This document shows, in pieces, positions 16,312 to 30,168 of a stretch of 64,000 nt of DNA (positions are counted from its first letter, which is position 1; each line of letters begins with the position of its first letter). Under the pieces are notes generated by a model that was not told the DNA's origin, searched no databases, and saw only the letters and a list, made by a program, of their open reading frames with translations. Both the position numbers and the translations under genes were made by a program. The stretch covers positions 73,045-137,044 of the forward strand of contig CATQHX010000078.1 in assembly GCA_958296065.1 (NCBI GenBank). Direction: 5' to 3'. Origin of the DNA: Vicinamibacterales bacterium. Its GTDB lineage: Bacteria; Acidobacteriota; Vicinamibacteria; Vicinamibacterales; UBA8438.

Positions 16312-16863
16312 ATGTCGCTCGTACCCGTCTGGGCGCCGAACCTGCATCCGCTCGTCGTGCACTTTCCGATCGCCCTGCTCTTCGCGGCGGCGGCGGTCGA
16401 CGCGGCCAGCCTCCTGATGCAAGCGCACACGCCGGTGCGGGACGTCGCGACGTGGTTGTACATCGCGGGTGCGGCGACCGCCGTCGGCGCCTACTTCACC
16501 GGCTACACTGCCGCGCAGGCGGCGGGGCCGCCGGCCGAGTTCGCTGCGCTCGTCGCCCTGCACGCCGATCGGGCATTCGTCGCGACGTGGCTGTTCGCCT
16601 TCTTCGCTTCGCTGCGGCTCGCGATGTCGTACATCCTTCGTCCGCGGCGAGCGTTGCGGATCGGAGCATTCGCCGTCGCGCTGGTCGGACTCGGTGCGCT
16701 CGCGCAGACCGCGCTGCACGGCGCCCGGCTCGTCTTCGAACAGGGATTCGGGGTCCGGGCGGTCGCCGCCGGGCAGGCATCGACGGAAACCGTGGAGAAG
16801 GCGCCCGCCAGACGCATGGTGGGGCCGTCGGCGGCACGGCTTGAAAGAGAGGATCCGGAATGA
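16312..16863 (+). CDS. DUF2231 family membrane protein
   Basis: LHPLVVHFPIAL motif, about 4 TMs, GARLVF. Confidence 0.8.
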   Translation: MSLVPVWAPNLHPLVVHFPIALLFAAAAVDAASLLMQAHTPVRDVATWLYIAGAATAVGAYFTGYTAAQAAGPPAEFAALVALHADRAFVATWLFAFFASLRLAMSYILRPRRALRIGAFAVALVGLGALAQTALHGARLVFEQGFGVRAVAAGQASTETVEKAPARRMVGPSAARLEREDPE

Positions 16864-18971
16864 GGTCGCTGCTGATCATGTCGCTCGTCGCGCTGGCTGC
16901 AACCGGCGTGGCGTCCGCCCAGGAACAGACATCGGAGGGGCCGTGGCAGACCTACGGCACCGAGAACGGCGAATGGCGCAGCTACGCCGGCGACATCGCC
17001 GGCACCAAGTACTCGCCGCTCGACCAGATCGACGCCGGCAACTTCAGCGACCTGGAGATCGCGTGGGAGTGGACGTCAATCGACAACTTCGTCAGCCGGA
17101 CCACCCCCGGCGGCGGCGAGTGGTCGGCCCCGCTCGAGGTCATCGTCGACTCGCTGGTCGAGGAGACCCCGAACCTCTACCGCAGCAGCCAGCCGCCTAA
17201 TCCGTCGCGCCTGCAGGTGACGCCGCTGATGATCGACGGCGTGCTCTACTTCAACACGCCGCTGTCGCAGGGGGTCGCCGTGGACGCGACAACCGGTGAG
17301 ACGCTCTGGATCTTCAACCCGAAGGGCTACGAGGAAGGGACCCCGTCGATGAGCGGCCCCTGGACACAGCGCGGCGTGGCCTACTGGACAAACGGCGAAG
17401 GCGACGAGCGCATCTTCTGGGGCACCGGCAACGGCTACATGGTCTGCGTGAAGGCGAAGACCGGGCAGCCCTGCCCCGACTTCGGACCCGACGGGAGCGG
17501 CATGGTCGACGCAATGATCGGCATTCCGCGGGTGGAGCGCGAAGCGCGCGACTACCTGAACGCCCTGCTCTACTCCATCAACTCGCCGCCCATCGTCGTG
17601 CGCGACAAGGTGATCCACGGCTCGCAGATCGCCGACCGGCGCATCACCCGCGAAGCGCCTCCCGGCTGGGTCCGGGCCTGGGACGTCCGCACCGGCGCGC
17701 ACGCCTGGGACTTCCACACCGTGCCGAACAGCGCCGACGAGTTCGGCGTCGACACCTGGCTGAACGAATCGTGGCGCTACTCCGGAAACGCCAACGTCTG
17801 GTCGATGCTGGCCGGCGACAACGAGTTGGGCCACGTCTACCTGCCGACCGGCACCACCACGAACGACTACTACGGGGCCGACCGGCCGGGCGACAACCTG
17901 TTCTCGGAATCGATCATCGCCGTCGACGTGGAGACGGGCCAGCGAATGTGGCACTTCCAGGCGGTCCACCACGGGCTGTGGGACTACGACTTCCCGACGC
18001 ATCCGAACCTGGTCGACGTGGAGGTCGACGGCCGGCCCATCAAGGCGCTGGTGCAGGTGAGCAAGCAGGCCTTCGTCTACGCTTTCGACCGGGTTACCGG
18101 CGAGCCGATCTGGCCCATCGAGGAGCGGCCGGTGCCGCAGGCCACGAACATGCCGGGCGAGATCCCGTCTCCCACGCAGCCGTTTCCGACAAAGCCGGCC
18201 CCGTTCGACTACCAGGGGGTCACCATCGACGACCTGGTCGACTTCACGCCGGAGCTTCGGCAGATGGCGATAGAAGTCGTGAGCAACTACCAGATCGGGC
18301 CGCTGTTCACCCCGCCCGGCCGGGCCATCAACGGCGGCACGCAGGGCACGCTGATGCGTCCGCCCGACTTCGGCGCTGCCGGCTGGGCCGGCGCGGCGGT
18401 GGACCCCGAGACCGGGATGCTCTACGTCCCGTCACGCAATATCGCCGTCGCCATCCCGCTCTACACGCCCGACCCGGACCTCGGCGCCACGATGCTCTAC
18501 ACGCACGGCGCCCCGGAGGATCAGCGGCTGCGCCAGATCCGGCAGGGACAGTCCTACCAGGCGCGGATGCCGCAGGGCCTGCCGCTGCTCAAGCCGCCCT
18601 ACTCGCGGATCACCGCCATCGACATGAACACCGGCGAGCACGCCTGGATGGTGCCCCTCGGCAACGGCGACCGCATCCGCAACCACCCGCGGCTGCGCCA
18701 CCTGAACCTGCCGCCGCTCGGCGACGGCACCATCGGGGGGCCGCTGCTGACGAAGACCCTGCTCATCAGCACCGTGCCGACCGCCGGCAGCCAGGGCGGA
18801 CCCGGCCTCGTCGCCTGGGACAAGCAGACGGGCGAGATCCGCGGCGCGGTCGACCTGCCCGCGGGCACCATCGGCACGCCGATGACCTACCTGGTCGACG
18901 GCCGGCAGTACATCGCCGTCAGCATCGGCGGCGGCCCGCGGGTGGTGGCCTTCGCGCTGCCCGCGGATTGA
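16860..18971 (+). CDS. Secreted PQQ-dependent dehydrogenase (glucose/quinate type)
   Basis: Signal peptide; YSPLDQI, WHFQAVHHGLWDYD, PPYSRITAIDMNTG, PMTY..GRQYI motifs. Confidence 0.9.
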   Translation: MRSLLIMSLVALAATGVASAQEQTSEGPWQTYGTENGEWRSYAGDIAGTKYSPLDQIDAGNFSDLEIAWEWTSIDNFVSRTTPGGGEWSAPLEVIVDSLVEETPNLYRSSQPPNPSRLQVTPLMIDGVLYFNTPLSQGVAVDATTGETLWIFNPKGYEEGTPSMSGPWTQRGVAYWTNGEGDERIFWGTGNGYMVCVKAKTGQPCPDFGPDGSGMVDAMIGIPRVEREARDYLNALLYSINSPPIVVRDKVIHGSQIADRRITREAPPGWVRAWDVRTGAHAWDFHTVPNSADEFGVDTWLNESWRYSGNANVWSMLAGDNELGHVYLPTGTTTNDYYGADRPGDNLFSESIIAVDVETGQRMWHFQAVHHGLWDYDFPTHPNLVDVEVDGRPIKALVQVSKQAFVYAFDRVTGEPIWPIEERPVPQATNMPGEIPSPTQPFPTKPAPFDYQGVTIDDLVDFTPELRQMAIEVVSNYQIGPLFTPPGRAINGGTQGTLMRPPDFGAAGWAGAAVDPETGMLYVPSRNIAVAIPLYTPDPDLGATMLYTHGAPEDQRLRQIRQGQSYQARMPQGLPLLKPPYSRITAIDMNTGEHAWMVPLGNGDRIRNHPRLRHLNLPPLGDGTIGGPLLTKTLLISTVPTAGSQGGPGLVAWDKQTGEIRGAVDLPAGTIGTPMTYLVDGRQYIAVSIGGGPRVVAFALPAD

Positions 18972-18988: not shown

Positions 18989-20472
18989 ATGAATGTCACC
19001 AGGCTGCGCCTCGAGAACTTCAAGCGCTTCACCGACCTGACCATCGACCTGTCGTCGTGCGCCGGCGCGCCGAAGCTGGTGCTGCTGATCGGGGCGAACG
19101 GCAGCGGCAAGTCGTCCGTCTTCGACGCGTTCGAGTACCTGTCGGCACAGCACAAGGGCGACGCGGCGCCACCCTCGACGCGTTTCTCGGAGGCTTTCTC
19201 CGATGCGTTCTACAAGGGCGAGGCGTACGAGAAGTTCCTGAACTACCTCAAGAAGGACCCGGCCGCAGAGATGTCGGCGGCCTGCGCGTTCGGGGGAGGC
19301 TTCGAAGTCCGTCGGTCCAACGGCTCGAGCCCGACGACGTCACCGACCGAGTGGGACGTGAAGTCGGCGTTCTACGGACGGAGCTCGTTGCGAACGGTCC
19401 CCGAGCTTCGCGCCACGCCCCAATCCGTGGACGTGGGGACCGACCCCGACCGCCCGCGGCGGTTCATCGAGTTCGACACGCGTTTCGCTTCCAGAAAGGC
19501 CAGTCGAACGTCCACTACGACCTGCTCAGCAGCGGCGAGAAGGAGGTGTTCAACATCCTCCTCAACCTGTTCACTCGCCGCGAGCACTTCCCGAACGCCA
19601 TCTACTTCATCGACGAGCTCGACGTACATCTGCACACGCGGCTTCAGCACGCGCTGATCCGGGAAGTGGTCGAGCACTGGATTCCGGACTACTCGCAGCT
19701 CTGGGCGGCCAGCCACTCGCTCGGCTTCATCGAGTACGCCGGCGAGGCCGCGGATGCGGCCATCATCGACTTCGACGACCTCGACTTCGACCGCCCGCAG
19801 GTGCTGGCGCCGGCGACGAAATCCCCGGACATCTTCGACATCGCGGTGCCCAGAGACTCCGCGTTGAAGGTCTTCCCCAACCAGACGCTGGTCGTCTGCG
19901 AAAACCAGGACGCGCTGCTCTACAACGCGATCCAGCTCCCCGGCCTGTTGTTCGTCGGCGCCAGGGACAAGAACGCCGTCGGGCTGCAGATCAGGACGAA
20001 CGACGAGTTCCGCGGCCTGATGGACCGCGACTTCCTCGGTTCGGACGAAATCGAGGAATTGCGCCGCGAGCAGCCGCACCTCTTCGTGCTCGGGTACTAC
20101 TCCCTCGAGAGCTACGTCTACCATCCCCTGAACCTGGCGGAGGTGTCGCCGCCCGGATTCGACGAAACGGAATATCGGGGTTTGCTCCAGGCGCGCATGG
20201 TGGAAGCTCGTGACCGCCTGCTGATGAACCTGGAACGGAGCCGCAACGGCTACGAGGTTATCAAGACGCTTCCCAGGGAGACGAAGGCGCGTGCGATGGA
20301 GGAGATCGCGAAGGCGACGGCGTCCGACGATTTCGAGACCTTCTACTCGTTCCTCGACATGAAGAACCAGCGCCCCGGCGATTATCTCGGGGAGTTCAAC
20401 CTGCAGCGCCTCGATCTTGCACGAACCGCCTGGATGCGGGACGCGATCACCGCGGTCCTCGGCGCCGCGTAG
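18989..20472 (+). pseudogene. Frameshifted ABC-ATPase fused to a C-terminal TOPRIM-like domain
   Basis: 5' frame carries LENFKRF and GANGSGKS; a different frame from about 19485 carries LSSGEK, FIDELD, ASHS, then VCENQD and MDRD. Confidence 0.8.
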
Positions 20473-20781: not shown

Positions 20782-21042
20782 TCACCGGCGCCGATAAACC
20801 TCCCGGCGATGTGCGACCCGTACGACGAGGACGACGAGGACCTCGTCGAGGACTTCGTAGACGATTCGATAGTCGCCGACACGAACCCGTCGCAGGCCGA
20901 GAAGCTCCCCCTTCAGGACGCTTCCCCTGAGTGGACGCGCTCGAAGGTCGTCGATCGCTGCAACGATTCGGCGGCGCTCAGCCTCCGGAATGCGGGCGAG
21001 CTCCCTGGCGGCGCTCCGCTTGATCCGAACCGAGTAGTTCAT
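20782..21042 (-). CDS. RelE/ParE-family toxin
   Basis: YSVRIKRSAAREL...LRRVRVGDYRIVYEV...VAHRREVY. Confidence 0.9.
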   Translation of the reverse strand: MNYSVRIKRSAARELARIPEAERRRIVAAIDDLRARPLRGSVLKGELLGLRRVRVGDYRIVYEVLDEVLVVLVVRVAHRREVYRRR

Positions 21043-21241
21043 CCCTGACTCTGTCCCAGTCCAGCACCGGGTCGGCGGGATCGCGCAGGCGCTCCAGCGC
21101 TACCGAGAGATCGTCGAAGTCCTCCAGGTAGCGCTCCACCGCCTGACGGACGATGTCTGCCCTGCTGCGGTGCAACGCCTTGGCGGCGACATCCAGCGCC
21201 TCCACAACGTCATCCGCCAGGCGTGCCGTGATCTGACTCAT
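20978..21241 (-). CDS. Ribbon-helix-helix (CopG/RelB-like) antitoxin
   Basis: ITARL...SRADIVRQAVERYLED; lies upstream of and overlaps the toxin. Confidence 0.85.
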   Translation of the reverse strand: MSQITARLADDVVEALDVAAKALHRSRADIVRQAVERYLEDFDDLSVALERLRDPADPVLDWDRVRDELLGSDQAERRQGARPHSGG

Positions 21242-21369: not shown

Positions 21370-22590
21370 TCAGCCGCGGAGGAAGGCGTCGGTTTCCTCG
21401 ATGACGCGATCCTGCATCGCGGGCGTCAGTTCCGGGTAGATCGGTAGCGCGAGCGACCGTGAGGCGGCATCCTCACTGTTCGGAAACGCGCCCGCCGGGT
21501 GAGCGAGGTGGTGGAAGCACGGCTGCCGGTGAAGCGGCACGGGGTAGTAGATCATCGTATCGATGCGCCGCGCCGCGAGGTGTTGGCGCAGAGCGTCCCG
21601 CCGGTCCGCGACACGGATGACGTACTGGTGGTACGTATGGAGGTCTCGTCCCCAGGCGGGCGCGGGCAGCTCTACGCCGGGGATCGCCAAGTGCTCATCG
21701 TAGTACGCGGCGCGCTCGCGGCGCCGCGCGTGCCAGCCGTCCAGATGCTGCAGTTTCGCAGCGAGTATCGCCGCCTGCAGCGTGTCGAGACGGAAGTTGC
21801 CGCCCACCTCGGGATGCCGGTAGGCGGCGTGCCCGCCGTGGTTGCGTAGCCGGCGCACGCGTTCCGCCGCCTCGGGATCACCGGTGACCACCAAGCCCGC
21901 ATCCCCCATGGCCCCCAGGTTCTTGGTGGGATAGAAGGAGAAGCAGGCAAGCGTGCCCATCGTGCCGGCCCGTCGGTCGCCGTGGCTGCCCCCACGGCCT
22001 GCTCGACTGCCGCTGGTGCCGCCGCGGATGCTGCCGCCCGCGCCGCCGCTGCTCCCGTTGGCGCCGCCACCGGGATAGCGTGCGCCCAGCGCCTGCGCCG
22101 CGTCCTCGACCACCGGGATCCCGTGCGACGCGGCCAGCTCCAGCATGGGGGACATGTCCGCGCACTGTCCGAACAGGTGCACCGGCACGATTGCCTTGAC
22201 CCGCGACCGACGCTCCGGTTCGCGCTCGAACCAGTCGGCCAGGCGCGCGGGGTCGATGTTGAACGTCCGCGGATCGATGTCGACGAAGACCGGGATCGCA
22301 CCGAGCCGGGCCACCGCGCCGGCAGTGGCGAAGAACGAGTAGGGCGTCGTGACGACGAGATCGCCGGGACCGACGTCCAGAACCATCAGCGAGACGAGCA
22401 GCGCATCCGTGCCGGAGGAAACGCCGATCGCGTGGTCGACGCCGATATAGTCGGCCATCGCCCGCTCGAAGGACTCGAGCACCGGTCCGCCGACGTAGCG
22501 GCCGGAAGCGACGACGTCGAGCACCGCCCGCTCGATTTCCGGCCGCGTGGTCTCGAGCTGGGCGGCCAGGTCGAGAAACGGGACACGCAC
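21370..22590 (-). CDS. DegT/DnrJ/EryC1/StrS PLP-dependent aminotransferase
   Basis: VPFLDL, SGTDAL, VHLFGQ, EDAAQA, SFYPTKNLG (PLP Lys). Confidence 0.92.
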   Translation of the reverse strand: MRVPFLDLAAQLETTRPEIERAVLDVVASGRYVGGPVLESFERAMADYIGVDHAIGVSSGTDALLVSLMVLDVGPGDLVVTTPYSFFATAGAVARLGAIPVFVDIDPRTFNIDPARLADWFEREPERRSRVKAIVPVHLFGQCADMSPMLELAASHGIPVVEDAAQALGARYPGGGANGSSGGAGGSIRGGTSGSRAGRGGSHGDRRAGTMGTLACFSFYPTKNLGAMGDAGLVVTGDPEAAERVRRLRNHGGHAAYRHPEVGGNFRLDTLQAAILAAKLQHLDGWHARRRERAAYYDEHLAIPGVELPAPAWGRDLHTYHQYVIRVADRRDALRQHLAARRIDTMIYYPVPLHRQPCFHHLAHPAGAFPNSEDAASRSLALPIYPELTPAMQDRVIEETDAFLRG

Positions 22591-22592
22591 TA

Positions 22593-23075
22593 TCAGAGGT
22601 CCACGTCGAGCTGCCTCGCCATCGGGATGAAGGCGATGCCGTTGACCGCGCGCTCGGGTCCGGTCTGGCGGAAACCGAGCCGCTCGTAGGCCGGCACGCC
22701 GTAACGCGACGAGTTGACCGTGACCCGCTCGAGGTCCGGGTCCGCGGCGCGGGCGTCCGCGAGCGCCGCGTGCAGCAGCCCCTTGGCGATACCGTGCTGC
22801 TGGTGCGCCTTGTCGACGAAGAGGAGCGCGACGTGGTTGTTCTGCCGGATCTCGATCATGCCGGCCAGCACGCCGTCGACGGTCGCCACGCGAACGAAAT
22901 GGTCCTCGGCGGTACGCGCCTCGAGCGCCTCGGGCGCGACGAACCTGCGGAACTCCGCATTGCCTTCGTCGGTCAGCTCCGGACCGATGAACTCGTCGAA
23001 CGACGAGAGGACCAGCGCCGAGACGGCGCCGGCTTCGCCGGGCTGCATGACTCGATAACACACAGCGTCGCTCAC
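22593..23075 (-). CDS. GNAT N-acetyltransferase
   Basis: LFVDKAHQQHGIA motif A; VNSSRYGVPAYERLGF. Confidence 0.88.
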   Translation of the reverse strand: MSDAVCYRVMQPGEAGAVSALVLSSFDEFIGPELTDEGNAEFRRFVAPEALEARTAEDHFVRVATVDGVLAGMIEIRQNNHVALLFVDKAHQQHGIAKGLLHAALADARAADPDLERVTVNSSRYGVPAYERLGFRQTGPERAVNGIAFIPMARQLDVDL

Positions 23076-23141
23076 GTCTGACCTCGCGGTTTGCCGCGTG
23101 CCCCGCCCGCCGTCGCGGGGCGGCGCGACAGGGGAAAGCTC

Positions 23142-23594
23142 CTAGCGGGACAGGCTCTTGATGTAGTTGACGAGGTTCCAGATGTCCTCGTCGCGAAGCT
23201 GGTTGCCATAGCCCTGCATGTCGGCGGTCACGCCTTCCTTGATCACCGTGAATATCTCGCCGTCGCTCGCGCCGTGCGTCCAGACGTCGTCGGTAAAGTC
23301 GGACGGGATGCCGCCCGCGTGCGACATGTCGCCGTCTCCCGCGCCCCGATTGCCGTGACACTGCCGGCACAGGAAGACGTAGCGCTGCCGGCCGGCGACC
23401 AGCGACTCGCGGGTCGGCTCGACCGGGTTCTCCAGCGCCTGCGCATCGGCGTGCTGGTGAGGCTCCGCGGGATGCTCCTGCGCGGTTGCCGCGGCGGCAG
23501 AGACCTGGACTGCGACAGCCAGCGCGAAGCCGGCCGCAGCCGCCGCTGCGATGAGGCGCCCCCTCCAGCGATGAACGGCCAGTACGAAGTTCAT
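23142..23594 (-). CDS. Exported monoheme c-type cytochrome
   Basis: Signal peptide, CRQCHG heme motif, DMQGY, IWNLVNYIKSL; GAGG just before the ATG at 23594. Confidence 0.88.
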   Translation of the reverse strand: MNFVLAVHRWRGRLIAAAAAAGFALAVAVQVSAAAATAQEHPAEPHQHADAQALENPVEPTRESLVAGRQRYVFLCRQCHGNRGAGDGDMSHAGGIPSDFTDDVWTHGASDGEIFTVIKEGVTADMQGYGNQLRDEDIWNLVNYIKSLSR

Positions 23595-23598
23595 ATCC

Positions 23599-24114
23599 TC
23601 ATTCCTGCGGCGCATCGAAGTTCTCCCACATGTACTCGGGAAAGTAGGTGTGCAGATGCATGAAGACCTCGTGAACGAGGTTCACCGCCCGGTTCACGCC
23701 GTAGCCGTGATGATGCTCGCGCGCCACCACCTCTAGCGACAGGGCGGCCCGACGAACGAAGCAGCGCACCTCGGCGCGCTCCGGATCGACACGCCGATGC
23801 GCCGGCAGGTCGGCGGAGGCACGGCCCCGGACGAACCGGCGCAATGCACCCGCCAGCGACGACCGCGCCGGCACGTTCGGGAGCAGATCCCGAAACGCCA
23901 GTGTGCCGGACGCGGGATCGTAGCGCAGCGTGAACGGCGACGGCGCCAGCCAGCGGAACGTGAACTCGTACCGCCCGCGCCGGCCCGGCCCTTCGGCCAG
24001 CCCCCGAAAGACGCCCCGCTCGGCATACTCCTGCAATCGAGCCCGCACCTCGGTCAAGCCGTCGTGCAGCGGCCCGCGCCCCTCCGTCCGAACGTCCCGG
24101 CCTTCCTCCACCAA
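23599..24114 (-). CDS. Hypothetical protein, no signal peptide
   Basis: 171-aa ORF that exactly fills the gap between the ThDP enzyme stop and the cytochrome c; protein-like composition. Confidence 0.7.
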   Translation of the reverse strand: MVEEGRDVRTEGRGPLHDGLTEVRARLQEYAERGVFRGLAEGPGRRGRYEFTFRWLAPSPFTLRYDPASGTLAFRDLLPNVPARSSLAGALRRFVRGRASADLPAHRRVDPERAEVRCFVRRAALSLEVVAREHHHGYGVNRAVNLVHEVFMHLHTYFPEYMWENFDAPQE

Positions 24115-26067
24115 CTAATGGTAGTAGGACATCACGCCCGGCTCGATCTTGCCGAGGAACCCGGGCGGATACTGGTCGCGCAGCCAGAACTCCTTCTTGG
24201 CCTGCACGTTGACAACGCTGGGACGGCTCTCGTCGAGCGCCACCTGGTAGGCCCGCTCCAGCGCCGGCCGCATTTCGTCGGGCCGCGTGACGTACTCGCC
24301 GTGCGCCCCGAGCGCCTCACCGAGCTTGTCGTAGCGCAGATTCTCCTGGAACAGGTGCACCGGGAGCCCGAGGGTGTTGTTGCGCTGGCCGGTCCACGTG
24401 CCCCACGCGTTGTTGTTGTAGACGACGATCACGGCCGGGAAGCGGTACTTGGACAGCGTCTCGACTTCCATCGCGGTATAGCCGAAGCCGCCGTCTCCCG
24501 TAATGCCAATCACCGGATGGCCCTCGAACCCGGCCTGCGCCCCGACGCCGTGCCGGACCGCCGCCGCTACGCCTACCGTGTAGCCGATGTCCGGACCGAT
24601 CGCCCCGTACTGGTACGCGCCGTTGATGATCTGCGCCGGCCGGTGCGCGCGGAGGTAGCGCCGCGTGTAGCGGGCGATGCCATAGCCGCCCTGCAGGATC
24701 GTGGTGCGATCCGCCGGCAGGTCGCCGTGGTGCAGGAAGTCGGCGAGTTCCTTGCCGATGACCGCCGGATGCACCGCGTCGGTATAGCCCAGACCAGTTC
24801 GGTAGTACTCCTCGTTCTCCGCCTCGAACGCCTCCCGCGCCGCGGCCACCTCGGCCACCCACGCCTCGCGCCGCTGGCGTGGCATGGCGTCGGCCAACGC
24901 CTCGAGCGCGGCCCGTTCATCGCTGACGATGCCGACGTCGATCGGCAGGTTGCGCCCGATGTCTTCCGCGCCTGGATCGATGCGGATGTAGCGCGCGTCG
25001 GGGCCGAAAGCGAACTCCCCGAGCGTCGGCATGCAGTACTGGCCGACGAGCAGGACGACGTCCGCGCTCATCATCGCCATCGGCGCCGCGTCGGCCGACA
25101 GCTCGTGCTCGGCCGGGAACTGGCCCTTCATGGCGCCGGACTCGACCACCGGAATGTGCGCGCGCTCGGCCAGCTTTCGAAGCGCATCCCACGCCTTGCT
25201 GTAGAGGACGCCGTTGCTGGACACGATGACCGGCCGCTCGGCGCTCCGCAGCAGTTGGACCGCCTCGTCCACGGCCCGCGGATCGGGATGGGGTCTGGCG
25301 TCGGTGCGGTACTTGGTCTTGTCGTAGAAGTACTCGACGTCGATCGGATCGGTGAACCGGGCGCGGGCGATCTCGGCCGGGAAGTCGAGGTGCACCGGCT
25401 TCGGCACGCCGCTCTTGAGCTGCCGGAACGCGTAGCCGGCGTACTCCCAGGTACGGGCGGGAGTGATGAGCCGCTTGCCGTACTTCTTGATGCCCTCGGT
25501 CAGCGGCTGTTGCCGCTGATCCTGGATGCCCTGCTCGGTGTCCTCGGCGAAGATGGTCTTGTTGCTGGCAAGAACGAGGATCGGCGAGCGGGCCGAGTTG
25601 GCGGCCGAGATGGCCCCGATCATGTCGGTGAAGCCGGGCCCCTCGGTCCCCGAGGTCGCCGCCACCTCGCCGGTCGCGCGGCAGAAGGCGTCTGCCGCGT
25701 GGCAGAGCGAGCCCTCGTGGCGTCCCGAGTAGGTCGGAATACCCATGTCGCCGATGGCGTGCACGACGTCGTAGTTGCCCGGGCAGCAGAACAGCGCCTT
25801 GACGCCCTCTTCCTTGCAGGCGCGCGCGAACACCTGTGCGCCGGACATCGGGAAGTCGATTTCCGGCAGCGGGGCCGCCTTGGCCTTCTCGAACTCGCTG
25901 GGGATGGTGATCGGCTTGACATCGTCCTCGGCGGCGCGAGCGGCTCCGCCGCCGCCGAGCGCGGCCGCCGTAGCCCCGGCTCCACCCAGAACCGCCTGGC
26001 GCATGAACGCGCGCCGTGACTCCGCCGTGCCGCCGGATCGCTTCGCGCTCCGCGTCTTCGTCTTCAT
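24115..26067 (-). CDS. ThDP-dependent enzyme (OXC/HACL/ALS family) with twin-arginine signal peptide
   Basis: GGAGG SD; SRRAFMR...AARA signal; RHE catalytic Glu; GDGGFG-x-NNN ThDP motif. Confidence 0.88.
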
Positions 26068-26164
26068 GAGATCCTCCACACGCCTGGACGCCGCCGGGCT
26101 CCCGCCGTTCTCGCGATGAATGCCGCAGTGCGCCGCGTGGTGACCGCACCACTGCGCGCACGGC

Positions 26165-26193
26165 ATCCTAATCGCGCGTCCCCAAGGTGTCAA
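26165..26193 (-). promoter_or_regulatory. Near-consensus sigma70 promoter of the ThDP-enzyme operon
   Basis: TTGACA-17 bp-TAGGAT. Confidence 0.7.
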
Positions 26194-26261
26194 CGCGATG
26201 CCGACACAGTTGCGCCGGGCGGGACGGGGCCGTGCAACCGCCGCGGTGCGACCACGGCAGA

Positions 26262-27095
26262 CTACTCGGCGGAGACGAGCAGGACCCGCGCGTCCCGCGC
26301 ACACCGCGCGCCGACGTTGCTCGTGTGCCCGTCGGCGGAGAAGGGCAGCCTGACCGAGAGCCGCAAGACGCCCGGAAAGTTGAGCCACGACGCGCCGCGC
26401 ATGATGCGCAGGTAGCCCGTCTCCGCCGGCTGCGGATCGGTGAGCGGCCCGTCCGGATAGCGGATCGTGATCCAGCCGTTCACCCACTCCCAGACGTTGC
26501 CGGTCATGTCGTGGAGTCCGAAATCGTTCGGCGGAAACGAACCGACCGGCGCCGTGTTCAGCCAGTCGTCGACCCCGCCGGTGGCGCCGCTGCAGCACTG
26601 CGGGGCTCCGAAGTTGGAGTAATCGCGCGTCAGCTCGTCGCCCCACCAGTAGAGGCGCCCGTCATGCCCGGCCCGCGCCGCGTACTCCCACTCCCACTCG
26701 GTGGGCAGGCGCCCGCCGGCCCAGGCGCAGAAGGCCGCGGCATCGTGCCAGGTCATGTGAACAGCCGGGTGATCGGGCGCCTGCGGGTAGTCTGGGACCG
26801 CCGGCCGTGCGTAGCCGGTCGCCGCCACGAACGCGGCGTACTGACCGACGGTCACCTCCGTCGCCATCAGGTCGAACGTCGACAGCGTCACCTCGTGACG
26901 CGGGCGTTCGCTGTCGAGGCACGCGGCATCGCCCGGTACACAGCCCATCCGAAAGGCACCGGCGGGAATCGTCACCCACGGCAGCGCAATCCCCTGCGCC
27001 GCACCCGGGAGGGCACTCACGCCAATTCCGAGCGCGACCGCGGCCGCGGCGCATGCTCGCCGCCACGAGGCAGATAGGCGCATCCCAGCGTTCAC
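26262..27095 (-). CDS. Exported FGE-sulfatase/SUMF1-fold protein
   Basis: Signal peptide; [43 protein letters not shown]. Confidence 0.88.
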
Positions 27096-27568
27096 CCCTT
27101 GACCGCGATCCCTGCCACCTCGAAACGCGCCCCGAACAGCAGGGTGCCGGAGCCCAGGAACGCGCGGGCCGGCGGAGCCTCGTTGAAGTATTCGCGGTAC
27201 ACGCTGTTGAACGCGCCGTACAGCGAGACGTCCGAGCAGAAGACCTTCACGCTGACCAGGTCGTCCATCGTCATGTCGGCCTCGGCCAGCACGGCCTGGA
27301 TGCCGTTCATGACGTTGCGCGCCTCCTGCTCGGCGGTCGCCGGCGGCCGGCCGGTCTCCGGGTCCATGCCGAGACGACCCGCGACGTACAGCGTGTCGCC
27401 GGCCAGCACAGCATCGCTGAACGGCGCGGTCGTCGTGCGGCCCGGCAGGTTGATGGCACGGGGCGAGGAATCCTGCGTGGCGTTCAGCGCGGCCACCACG
27501 CCAGAGACGAGCACGCCGATGACGATGCCTGCGACGAAGACGAAACCGTTTCCACGAGCCCTCATCAT
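27092..27568 (-). CDS. RidA/YjgF family protein with N-terminal signal/TM
   Basis: APFSDAV, LYVAG, FNSVYREYF, PPAR (catalytic Arg), RFEV. Confidence 0.88.
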   Translation of the reverse strand: MMRARGNGFVFVAGIVIGVLVSGVVAALNATQDSSPRAINLPGRTTTAPFSDAVLAGDTLYVAGRLGMDPETGRPPATAEQEARNVMNGIQAVLAEADMTMDDLVSVKVFCSDVSLYGAFNSVYREYFNEAPPARAFLGSGTLLFGARFEVAGIAVKG

Positions 27569-27713
27569 GTCCTCCTGGTCGAAACGTGCAACGCGCTCCG
27601 CGTAGGCCGATGCAAGGCCTTCATCCGTGCGCGTCCACTCGCCGGCCGCGGGCCGGCGCCACGGGTTTCCGCCTGCCGATCGAATGCTGCCGGCGCACGG
27701 CGCGGTCCGGCCC

Positions 27714-28694
27714 TCATGCGCCGGTCAGGAACACTGTCGAGCCGGTGGTCCTCCGGCCCTCCAGGTCGCGATGCGCCTGCGCCGCGTCCTTGAGAGCGTA
27801 CGTCTGGTTGACCTCGATACGCACCGCTCCGCTCCCGACGACATCGAACAGCTCCGCCGTCGTCTCCTCGAGCTCCTGCCGCGTCGCGGTATAGGTCGCC
27901 AGGGTCGGACGCGTCAGGAACAGGGAACCTTTCTGGGCCAGGATCGCCGGCTTGAACGGGTCGACGGCGCCCGACGCGTTGCCGAAGCTCACCATCAGCC
28001 CGCGCGGCTGCAGGCAGCGCAGCGAGTCGTCGAACGTGTCCTTGCCGACCGAGTCGTAGACCACAGGGACGCCCTTGCCGCCGGTCAGCTCCTTCACGCG
28101 GTCGACGAAGCTCTCCTCGGTATAGACAATCGGATGGTCGCAGCCGTGGGCCTTCGCCAGCTCCGCCTTCTCGCGGGTGCCGACGGTGCCGATGACCGTG
28201 GCGCCGAGGTGCTTCAGCCACTGGCAGGCGATCAGGCCGCACCCGCCCGCCGCGGCGTGGAAGAGCACCGTTTCGCCCGGCTGCACGGCATGGGTGCGCC
28301 GGACGAGGTACTGCACCGTACAGCCCTTCAGCATGACCGCAGCCGCCTGCTCGTCACCGATCCCGCCCGGGATCTTCACAAGCAGCTTCGACGCGATGAT
28401 CCGGCGCTGCGCGTAGCTGCCGAGGCTCATGCAGTAGGCGACCCGGTCGCCGACCGCCACCTCGGTCACTCCTTCGCCGACGGCTTCCACCACGCCGGCC
28501 CCCTCGTTGCCGATGGTCAGCGGGAACGACGGCGCCGGGTACAGGCCGGTCCGGAAGTAGACGTCGATGAAGTTGAGCCCGGCCACGGTCTGCCGGACGA
28601 CAGCCTCTCCCGGCCCCGGATCGGGAACGTCGACCGCCTCCCAGCGCAGGACTTCGGGACCGCCGTTTTCGTGAATGCGAATCGCGTGTGTCAT
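27714..28694 (-). CDS. qor: NADPH:quinone oxidoreductase (zeta-crystallin family)
   Basis: GLNFIDVYFRTG, HAAAGGCG, YDSVGKDTF, FGNASG, GSLFLTRP motifs. Confidence 0.92.
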   Translation of the reverse strand: MTHAIRIHENGGPEVLRWEAVDVPDPGPGEAVVRQTVAGLNFIDVYFRTGLYPAPSFPLTIGNEGAGVVEAVGEGVTEVAVGDRVAYCMSLGSYAQRRIIASKLLVKIPGGIGDEQAAAVMLKGCTVQYLVRRTHAVQPGETVLFHAAAGGCGLIACQWLKHLGATVIGTVGTREKAELAKAHGCDHPIVYTEESFVDRVKELTGGKGVPVVYDSVGKDTFDDSLRCLQPRGLMVSFGNASGAVDPFKPAILAQKGSLFLTRPTLATYTATRQELEETTAELFDVVGSGAVRIEVNQTYALKDAAQAHRDLEGRRTTGSTVFLTGA

Positions 28695-28819
28695 CGATCG
28701 CTCCGGGCTGGATGAACGTTCTCGGTGAGTTGCAGGGCGATCTTAGCAGCCGGACGGCATCGGAACCGACCGGGGGGCCGGCCGACGCCCGACCGCCGTT
28801 GCGGTACCATAGCCCGCAG

Positions 28820-30130
28820 ATGGCCACGACCACCGGCGCCTTCGACGCGCACCACCCACCGTCGTCCGATCTGCTCGCCGACTGCGTGCACTGCGGCTTC
28901 TGCCTGCCGCCGTGCCCGACCTACGCGCTGTGGAACCGCGAGACCGACTCGCCCCGCGGGCGAATCCACCTGATGAAGGTGGCGCTGGAGGGCAAGGCGG
29001 AGATAACGCCGGAGTTTGCGCGGCATTTCGACACCTGCCTCGGCTGCATGGCCTGCCTGACCGCGTGTCCGTCCGGGGTGCAGTACGACAAGCTGGTGGA
29101 AGCCGCCCGGCCGCAGATCGAGCGGCACGTCGAGCGACCGGCGGGCGATCGCCTGTTCCGGCGGTTGGTCTTCTCGCTCTTTCCCTACCCCGGCCGGCTC
29201 CGCTGGGTGGCGCTGAAGCTGTGGGCCTACCAGCGGCTGGGAATCCGGTGGCTGGTGCGCGCGAGCGGACTGCTGAACCTGCTCCCCGCGCGGCTGCGCG
29301 CCCTGGAGGCGGTGGCCCCGCCCATCACGTTCGACGGCATCTGGTCCTCGATGCCCGCCGTCATCCCCGCGCAGGGTGAGCGGCGGCGGCGCGTGGCCAT
29401 GCTGCTCGGTTGCGTGCAAAGGGTCTTCTTCAGCGACGTGAACGCCGCCACGGCTCGCGTGCTCGCGGCCGAGGGCTGCGACGTGGTGATCCCGCCGGCG
29501 CAGGGGTGCTGCGGCGCCCTGATGATGCACTCCGGCCTGGAGAGCGAAGCGGAAGCGATGGCGCGGCGCTTCATCGACGCTTTCGAGCCGGCGCTGGCCG
29601 ACGTCGACGCCATCGTGATCAACGCCGCCGGTTGCGGGTCGACGCTGAAGGAGTACGGGCATCTGCTGCGAGACGACCCGAAGTACGCGGCACGTGCGGC
29701 GGCGCTGGCCGCCAGATGCCGCGACATCTCGGAAGTGCTGGCCGAGCTCGAACCGCGGGCTCCGCGACACCCCCTGAAGATGCGCGTGGCCTACCACGAC
29801 GCCTGTCACCTGCAGCATGCGCAGGGGGTGAGCATGGAGCCCCGCCAGGTGCTGGCCGCGATACCGGATCTCGATGTGTGCGACGTGCCGGAGGGCGGGC
29901 TCTGCTGCGGGTCGGCGGGCATCTACAACCTGGTGGAACCGGAGGCCGCGGGCGAGCTGGGGCAGCGCAAGGCGAGGAACGTCCTGTCGACCGGGGCGGA
30001 CGCCATCGTGTCGTCGAATCCGGGGTGCCTGTTGCAACTCGGCAGCGCGCTCGAGCGCGAGGGACGACCGTTGCCGGCCATGCACCTTGTCGCGCTGGTC
30101 GACGCTTCGATCCGGGGCCGCCAGCCGTAG
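28820..30130 (+). CDS. glcF: Glycolate oxidase Fe-S subunit
   Basis: CVHCGFCLPPCP and CLGCMACLTACP; two CCG domains. Confidence 0.9.
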   Translation: MATTTGAFDAHHPPSSDLLADCVHCGFCLPPCPTYALWNRETDSPRGRIHLMKVALEGKAEITPEFARHFDTCLGCMACLTACPSGVQYDKLVEAARPQIERHVERPAGDRLFRRLVFSLFPYPGRLRWVALKLWAYQRLGIRWLVRASGLLNLLPARLRALEAVAPPITFDGIWSSMPAVIPAQGERRRRVAMLLGCVQRVFFSDVNAATARVLAAEGCDVVIPPAQGCCGALMMHSGLESEAEAMARRFIDAFEPALADVDAIVINAAGCGSTLKEYGHLLRDDPKYAARAAALAARCRDISEVLAELEPRAPRHPLKMRVAYHDACHLQHAQGVSMEPRQVLAAIPDLDVCDVPEGGLCCGSAGIYNLVEPEAAGELGQRKARNVLSTGADAIVSSNPGCLLQLGSALEREGRPLPAMHLVALVDASIRGRQP

Positions 30131-30168
30131 CTGCGGGAGCCAACTCCGCCCGCCGCCCGCCACCGCTG

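Follow-up and report, generated by a model that had tools for sequence, protein, structure and literature searches.

A putative Tat-exported thiamine diphosphate enzyme encoded with a small partner protein and a cytochrome c in Vicinamibacterales

To our knowledge, every thiamine diphosphate (ThDP) enzyme studied so far works within the cytoplasm or an organelle. Could a bacterium send such an enzyme, with its cofactor, across the membrane? The question is raised by a 64,000-nt window of the genome of a Vicinamibacterales bacterium (Acidobacteriota; assembly GCA_958296065.1, contig CATQHX010000078.1, positions 73,045 to 137,044), whose open reading frames (ORFs) include three minus-strand genes arranged head to tail that encode a ThDP enzyme with a twin-arginine translocation (Tat) signal peptide, a small protein, and a monoheme cytochrome c. 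A first-pass annotation of the DNA had proposed that these genes form a periplasmic ThDP system. All of the elements it described were confirmed on the minus strand, and the features of the locus, in window coordinates, are as follows.

26165..26193, minus strand: promoter-like site TTGACA-17-TAGGAT upstream of the ThDP enzyme gene, 10/12 matches
24115..26067, minus strand: large subunit, ThDP enzyme of 650 aa with a Tat signal (from Pfam and start-codon reading)
25933..26067, minus strand: twin-arginine signal peptide, residues 1-45, predicted cleavage between ARA and AEDD (from sequence reading)
24997..25017, minus strand: middle-domain loop E351-F-A-F-G-P-D357, specific to this enzyme family and predicted to dock the small protein (from alignment and complex model)
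24409..24498, minus strand: ThDP/Mg-binding motif GDG...NNN, residues 524-553 (from sequence and family alignment)
23599..24114, minus strand: small protein, 171-aa ORF with a secretion-chaperone-like fold and no signal peptide (from family search and model)
23142..23615, minus strand: monoheme class I cytochrome c, 157 aa, with a hydrophobic N-terminal signal (from Pfam and CxxCH)

The enzyme gene opens with an ATG at 26067 that is preceded, 6 nt ahead, by the Shine-Dalgarno sequence GGAGGA. Its TAG stop (24115-24117) directly abuts the TTG at 24114 that opens the 171-aa small ORF, the same adjacency that had been noticed before. The true start of the small ORF is uncertain because homology to its relatives begins only at about residue 17 to 22. 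Read from its first ATG, the cytochrome ORF overlaps the small ORF by 17 nt; the 4-bp gap originally described applies to the second ATG (23594), an alternative start that lies 4 nt past the small ORF.

A conserved twin-arginine signal on an enzyme of the ThDP decarboxylase superfamily

Residues 1 to 45 of the enzyme comprise a basic n-region, the motif S17-R18-R19-A-F-M, a Gly/Ala-rich h-region and the sequence A43-R-A45 followed by AEDD. A homologue scan, using one genome per species, recovered 264 stretches encoding relatives of the enzyme, of which the best 78 loci, from Vicinamibacterales, other Acidobacteriota including Blastocatellia, and Gemmatimonadota, were analyzed. The pattern [ST]RRxF[LIVM] was found in 78/78 loci, 53 to 71 residues ahead of an invariant F-P-M, and the n-region preceding the motif was freely variable. 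An RR pair with a hydrophobic stretch was also present in all six of the more distant paralogues (50 to 60% identity) that were fetched via the small protein, and the genome that carries the window encodes TatC (216.8 bits, over the cut-off). With an RR motif, a moderately hydrophobic h-region, an AxA site, and TatC in the genome, the enzyme carries the sequence features of a Tat substrate, and is very probably exported. The RR signal described in the first-pass annotation was present in each homologue analyzed. A translation start further downstream, at MSGAQV, was rejected since the part of the protein then lost shows conservation at the amino acid level.

Within the 650-aa enzyme, PF02776, PF00205, and PF02775 (TPP_enzyme_N, M, and C) all scored over their Pfam cut-offs, and both an R116-H117-E118 motif and GDGGFGY...NNN (residues 524-553) were present. 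E118, G524, D525, and N551-N553 were invariant among 30 family sequences. The three TPP domains, the catalytic Glu and GDG...NN place the enzyme in the ThDP decarboxylase superfamily, which spans pyruvate oxidase, acetohydroxyacid synthase, and oxalyl-coenzyme A decarboxylase (POX/AHAS/OXC). The best match in the PDB was the OXC 8vzj (E 8e-47 with the single sequence, 2e-57 with a profile), and the best solved relatives were OXC and 2-hydroxyacyl-coenzyme A lyase (HACL), followed by BbmA, benzaldehyde lyase/formolase, and glyoxylate carboligase, a ranking that agrees with the earlier placement of the enzyme nearest to OXC/HACL.

In NCBIfam, the enzyme reached no curated cut-off. The OXC/HACL models scored 190.2 against 557 (NF006721), 174 against 739.4 (TIGR03254), and 184.9 against 600 bits (NF058623). 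The highest score came from an acetolactate synthase model, yet at 238.3 bits against a cut-off of 587, and with a small protein that matches nothing in Pfam, the ACT domain included, membership of the acetolactate synthases fails. Relatives of the enzyme were 74 to 97% identical and 612 to 657 aa long, and the family as a whole is tightly conserved, with a mean column identity of 77% across the 30 sequences, which come from several lineages. Features of its own include a conserved segment P-I-x-I-P-x-E-F at the mature N-terminus, an invariant G-N-Y at the position of the G-I-P loop of HACL, the middle-domain loop E-F-A-F-G-P-D, which is invariant in the family and absent from the aligned OXC/HACL chains, and an invariant C-terminal tail whose last residue is His. 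The idea of an iron-sulfur site was dropped because the conserved cysteines C84, C95, C122, and C345 fall in different domains by alignment position. An AlphaFold2 model of the enzyme alone, built from a shallow 30-row alignment, was too poor (mean predicted local distance difference test, pLDDT, of 64) and was not used.

The three genes were linked well beyond the window. At loci with at least 650 nt of downstream sequence, a homologue of the small ORF directly followed the enzyme gene in 70/73 cases. At those with at least 1300 nt, a cytochrome c was present in 59/68, and both the small ORF and the cytochrome c in 56/68. The cytochrome alone was found in 3/68 loci, and in all three of these genomes the small gene was located elsewhere, standing alone there. 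At one locus, L069, an upstream ORF was considered as a displaced small protein and ruled out (hhalign probability 0.2). A reverse search with the small-protein profile in 301 Acidobacteriota genomes returned 19 places in 15 genomes, and at 19/19 a ThDP homologue was encoded within 1.5 kb; two copies of the small protein were held by 4 of the 15 genomes. A second, paralogous copy of the module, its enzyme 50 to 60% identical, occurred at L103-L108 (genomes G296, G050, G044, G221, G016, and G196) with permuted gene orders: cytochrome-enzyme-small protein in L103, L104, and L108, and small protein-cytochrome-enzyme in L106 and L107. Because the three genes were retained through these shuffled orders, we argue that they form a functional unit; the trio recognized in the window is conserved across several lineages and in three gene orders.

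The first-pass annotation had also assigned the unit its own promoter. One consensus-like site (10/12) was indeed found, against 0.4 expected in shuffled sequences, which lends that assignment weak support. For the region 22400-27700, RNA-library contigs of two data sets (runs X13-X16) matched the three genes at ≥99% identity. Contigs covering 23811-24542 and 23633-24220 bridged the junction between the enzyme gene and the small ORF, and one covering 23549-23797 bridged that between the small ORF and the cytochrome gene. No RNA contig from these runs covered 25948-26650, the stretch that holds the 5' end of the enzyme gene and the promoter-like site. The tables for X13 and X14 were identical, as were those for X15 and X16, and may represent the same data filed twice; two of the four runs are labelled sponge metagenome.

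The small protein and its predicted docking on the enzyme

Complex prediction with the full enzyme and the small protein gave interaction scores (ipSAE) of 0.74, 0.74, and 0.76, against 0.00 for all three controls. In the calibration of the tool, which is only approximate with the custom alignments used here, the mark was reached by 116/157 solved complexes and by 2/215 mismatched pairs. The runs shared at least 44% of their contacts, with a pLDDT of at least 82 for the small protein, and the score is not a recall of a solved complex since no sequence relative of the small protein occurs in the PDB. In the model, the small protein sits on the folded middle domain and not on the signal peptide, contacting enzyme residues 277-278, 333-336, 352-357, 375, 377, and 406, plus 557-560; contacts of the FAFGPD loop have the least expected error. 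On the side of the small protein, the interface is formed by R33-G34, H106-R107, and the last long helix, and these four residues all rank in the top 10 of that protein by conservation. The modelled interface suggests that the small protein likely binds the enzyme.

The small protein itself was matched to no family in Pfam or NCBIfam, and a sequence search of the PDB gave a best E of 0.21, a chance match. Among 1.84 billion proteins, however, 307 representatives were recovered at E≤1e-3, mostly 150 to 170 aa long, with near-invariant positions that include R33, G34, H106, R107, R108, and Y161. By sequence, then, the small protein defines an unnamed protein family. A hydrophobic N-terminus or signal peptide was found in 0/47 of its members, and the family is mostly basic, with a median isoelectric point (pI) of ~9.4. 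Two database entries join part of the small protein to other sequence, and each may be a fusion or a gene-calling artefact: in P0232 (439 aa), the second half of the small protein adjoins a TPP_enzyme_C fragment, and in P0229 (575 aa), part of the small protein is linked to 440 residues without a known family.

The AlphaFold2 model of the small protein was confident (pLDDT 94). Foldseek found no match to this model in the PDB at E≤1e-3. In a structural search with VIA-align, type III secretion chaperones and YbjN proteins made up 16 of the 18 top rows, aligned over 98 to 126 residues with Z of 6.6 to 8.8, a range that is common for this tool; the matches included 1s28 (Z 8.8) and SicP (1jyo, Z 8.0). 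In a protein atlas, DUF2299 occurred in 23 to 27% of the members of look-alike clusters. New in the present analysis are the predicted docking site, the fold resembling secretion chaperones, the changes in gene order, and the co-occurrence seen when the search starts from the small protein.

A proposed periplasmic reaction and the explanations that compete with it

What might the three products do together? We tentatively propose that they form a single extracytoplasmic enzyme system that acts on a carbonyl substrate free of coenzyme A (CoA), with electrons possibly passing to the cytochrome c. The latter has a single CxxCH (residues 83-87; 23355-23369), scores over the cut-off with both PF13442 (44.3 against 27) and PF00034 (35.7 against 21.3), and has a hydrophobic N-terminus by direct reading, which together mark it as a class I c-type cytochrome. 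Its service as the electron acceptor of the enzyme is plausible, at slightly less than even odds.

ThDP sites sit at dimer interfaces in this superfamily, and we know of no supply of ThDP outside the cell; the enzyme would therefore fold, dimerize, and load ThDP and Mg in the cytoplasm. The small protein, lacking a signal of its own, is predicted to dock on the middle domain of the enzyme, and the assembly would then cross the membrane through Tat using the RR peptide of the enzyme, with the small protein either riding along as a 'hitchhiker' subunit or leaving at the membrane as an assembly chaperone. Cytochrome c would be exported separately through Sec and receive its heme outside, as is established for c-type cytochromes. 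In the periplasm, the enzyme may take a 2-oxo acid, by decarboxylation, or an aldehyde, by direct addition; once the ThDP-bound enamine is oxidized, its electrons would reach the respiratory chain by way of the cytochrome c, and hydrolysis of the acyl-ThDP would yield a carboxylic acid. The most specific version of this scheme is a respiratory dehydrogenase of a new class, a flavin-free, Tat-exported ThDP enzyme that oxidizes a 2-oxo acid or aldehyde and hands enamine electrons directly to a dedicated cytochrome c, with a signal-less, chaperone-fold subunit as holder or escort; in that full form we consider it doubtful.

The proposal that the substrate is CoA-free draws on the nucleotide and CoA sites. 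In HACL/S, R156 and R276 bind adenosine diphosphate (ADP), and R260 and R400 bind acyl-CoA (ApbHACL/S numbering; as described in the available part of PMC11271303). Mapped by hand through the alignment to 8vzj, where these arginines stand at the published numbers minus one, they correspond to V221, Y344, A328, and R469 of the window enzyme, a mapping that rests on an alignment of <30% identity; a profile alignment puts R260 opposite P329 instead of A328. V221 and Y344, at the ADP positions, are conserved within the enzyme family. Three of the four ADP/CoA arginines are thus gone, a pattern consistent with a site that binds neither ADP nor CoA; the periplasm is not expected to contain them. Together with the NCBIfam scores, this bears out the doubt, voiced in the first-pass annotation, that the enzyme is an ordinary OXC or HACL. 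In the middle domain, the first strand is followed by a glycine-rich loop with the sequence S-S-N-G, which speaks weakly against a dinucleotide.

Several observations weigh against the proposed system. The fourth arginine, R400, falls opposite the invariant R469, where confidence in the alignment is low, and the solved relative 8vzk likewise has Val at the first ADP position, so that lost nucleotide and CoA sites are suggested rather than proven. The electron path is the weak point: neither a flavin nor an iron-sulfur site could be shown in the enzyme at the level of sequence and alignment, 9/68 loci have the small ORF without a cytochrome c within 5 kb, and one of the six paralogous loci (L105) lacks a nearby cytochrome. 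Every ThDP oxidoreductase known to us uses a flavin or an iron-sulfur site, and direct transfer from enamine to heme is therefore without precedent. A fusion of ThDP enzyme and cytochrome was found in none of the 10 longer cytochrome relatives, which the tool rates as weak evidence. The enzyme, probably dimeric or tetrameric in reality, entered the complex model as a monomer. RNA libraries may hold DNA, and a contig spanning two genes is proof neither of a single transcript nor of transcription.

In the main alternative, the exported ThDP enzyme works without redox chemistry, as a lyase, decarboxylase, or carboligase active for example in acyloin cleavage, desulfonation, or the ligation of aldehydes made in the periplasm, and the cytochrome c serves neighbouring periplasmic dehydrogenases, such as nearby pyrroloquinoline quinone (PQQ) enzymes. 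None of the nearest relatives of solved structure (OXC, HACL, benzaldehyde lyase, formolase, and glyoxylate carboligase) is a redox enzyme; a redox cofactor site was not found in the window enzyme; the cytochrome is missing in the nine loci mentioned above; and unclassified PQQ dehydrogenases are encoded within 5 kb in 9/78 loci, directly adjoining the trio, and in the same orientation, at L064, L068, L072, and L077. However, the cytochrome c accompanies the enzyme in three gene orders and in 59/68 loci, a PQQ gene is nearby in just those 9 of 78, and in the window the cytochrome start overlaps or abuts the small ORF. We regard this explanation as unlikely, though it is the one to be taken most seriously.

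A second alternative concerns the small protein, which might be a cytoplasmic, substrate-specific chaperone for Tat assembly or proofreading that would retain the enzyme until it has received ThDP and not leave the cytoplasm with it. The absence of a signal peptide from all 47 members, the best fold matches to type III secretion chaperones and YbjN (1s28 and SicP), and the predicted binding to the enzyme would suit such a role. Against it, the model places the contact on the folded middle domain rather than on the signal peptide, the family is mostly basic whereas type III chaperones are acidic, the Z-scores lie in a range common for the tool, and the abutting or overlapping frames fit subunits made in fixed proportion, although this last point is not decisive. 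A purely cytoplasmic chaperone seems to us possible but improbable. A third reading, in which the enzyme would be an ordinary acyl-CoA lyase or acetolactate synthase of the cytoplasm and its N-terminal extension untranslated or a non-working signal, would agree with the automatic database name 'acetolactate synthase large subunit-like' and with the usual overall fold and ThDP motifs, but is highly improbable given an extension conserved at the protein level in 78/78 loci with a fixed RR and a variable n-region, a Shine-Dalgarno sequence ahead of the upstream ATG, scores below all curated family cut-offs, and the missing three of four ADP/CoA arginines.

Returning to the proposed extracytoplasmic system, the first-pass annotation had listed three grounds on which its reading should be given up: homologues without the RR peptide or with a downstream start, a trio that is not conserved, and an ordinary acyl-CoA lyase. 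All three were checked and all three fail. Of its interpretation, the RR peptide, the trio, and the non-ordinary enzyme stood, and the hint drawn from neighbouring glcDEF genes did not, as set out below.

Genomic surroundings and comparison with known systems

In Vicinamibacterales-type loci, the trio is preceded by genes for a quinone-oxidoreductase-like protein, a RidA-like protein with a hydrophobic N-terminus, and an exported protein resembling formylglycine-generating enzyme (FGE)-sulfatase proteins, and is followed by a GNAT acetyltransferase gene; none of these neighbours was retained in Gemmatimonadota or Blastocatellia loci. The RidA-like protein of the window (PF01042; 27092-27568, minus strand) has an N-terminal hydrophobic segment that suggests export or a membrane anchor, and the stop of its gene overlaps the start of the exported FGE-sulfatase-like gene (PF03781; 26262-27095, minus strand) by 4 nt; the pair precedes the trio in many loci of Vicinamibacterales type. 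An exported imine deaminase would generate 2-oxo acids extracellularly.

The glcDEF genes had been taken as a hint of C2 and hydroxy-acid metabolism. A glcF gene was found within 5 kb in 34/78 loci, all of Vicinamibacterales type, and in 0 of those from Gemmatimonadota or Blastocatellia, a pattern of order-level synteny only. In the window, glcF lies on the strand opposite to the trio, three genes away. The region 28688-32930 contains glcF (CCG, Fer4; plus strand) convergent with glcE-like and glcD-like FAD (flavin adenine dinucleotide) oxidase genes (minus strand) and, because of this convergence, no single glcDEF operon.

The PQQ dehydrogenase of the window (16860-18971, plus strand; 703 aa, with a signal peptide) is encoded 4 kb from the trio. 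It scored below every NCBIfam cut-off, the nearest models being those of the glucose/quinate/shikimate family (376 bits, cut-off 833) and 'acido-empty-quinoprotein group A', and its relatives adjoin the trio in some Blastocatellia loci. The products of such dehydrogenases are aldehydes, lactones, or keto acids. The link between the trio and periplasmic dehydrogenases is recurring but far from universal. Elsewhere in the window, a ParE toxin (PF05016) and an RHH antitoxin (PF01402) are encoded in overlapping frames at 20782-21241 (minus strand), beside an AAA_21 ATPase gene (19057-20472, plus strand). The stretch 34001-40000, with a GC content of 0.57-0.64 against ~0.69 elsewhere and a strongly negative skew (-0.23 at 34-36 kb), may be foreign DNA or an RNA operon.

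A full-text literature search, judged by titles and abstract openings and with subscription journals outside its coverage, found no exported ThDP enzyme, and the words thiamin, ThDP, and TPP are absent from the text of a 2026 review of Tat. If a ThDP enzyme is exported here, thiamine would join the cofactors that Tat carries, and carbon-carbon bond chemistry would take place in the periplasm, where PQQ and flavin dehydrogenases produce aldehydes and keto acids. In the flavin-free version of the scheme, no earlier case would be known of a ThDP cofactor leaving the cytoplasm or of electrons passing from ThDP to heme. Should the cytochrome c be the acceptor, carbon oxidation would gain a new entry into respiration. 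Such a system would be relevant to abundant, little-cultured soil and marine groups (Vicinamibacteria, Blastocatellia, and Gemmatimonadota), and biotechnology, which employs HACL and formolase enzymes in synthetic one-carbon pathways, could take an interest in a relative of theirs that is naturally secreted and needs no CoA.

How does the locus compare with systems already described? OXC and HACL (8vzj, 8vzk, 7pt2, and 2c31) share its three-domain ThDP fold, catalytic Glu and GDG...NN, whereas the window enzyme is only ~25-30% identical to them, bears a Tat signal, does not conserve the ADP arginines and one CoA arginine, has G-N-Y in place of G-I-P and a tail ending in His, and is encoded with a small partner and a cytochrome c. 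Benzaldehyde lyase, formolase, and glyoxylate carboligase (2ag0, 4qq8, and 2pan) belong to the same branch of the superfamily and use free aldehydes or 2-oxo acids without CoA, but they are more distant (E 1e-27 to 1e-34), cytoplasmic, non-redox, and without partner proteins. Pyruvate oxidase and PoxB, the 'pyruvate dehydrogenase [cytochrome]' (1pow and 3ey9), oxidize the ThDP enamine and pass the electrons to an acceptor, and we think, by analogy, that the present system may work in this manner; they differ in carrying FAD in the middle domain and acting on the cytoplasmic side, and match the window enzyme at E 1e-21 to 1e-24.

For the small protein, the nearest folds are those of type III class I chaperones and YbjN/DUF2299 proteins (1s28, 1jyo, 4h5b, and 8q8o), from which it differs in having no sequence-family match to them, in being basic rather than acidic, and in having as its partner a Tat substrate rather than a type III substrate. 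For the proposed route of export, the periplasmic aldehyde oxidoreductase PaoABC of Escherichia coli offers a case of hitchhiker co-translocation through Tat (PMC4273604), although, as far as the available text describes it, that enzyme contains molybdenum, FAD, and iron-sulfur, is without ThDP, and is unrelated in sequence. The architecture is shared by the FAD complexes of the Burkholderia glucose dehydrogenase type, which, in the available part of their description, consist of a catalytic subunit, an ~18-kDa small Tat 'hitchhiker' subunit, and a c-type cytochrome subunit (PMC6719666). There, a folded, cofactor-loaded pair is exported by Tat with one partner lacking a signal, which is also the arrangement proposed here. 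The roles are reversed, however: in the FAD complexes, so far as that source covers them, the small subunit bears the RR and the catalytic subunit is the passenger, and they employ FAD, a 3Fe-4S cluster, and a three-heme cytochrome, with no relation in sequence or fold to the window system, in which the ThDP enzyme itself carries the twin-arginine signal.

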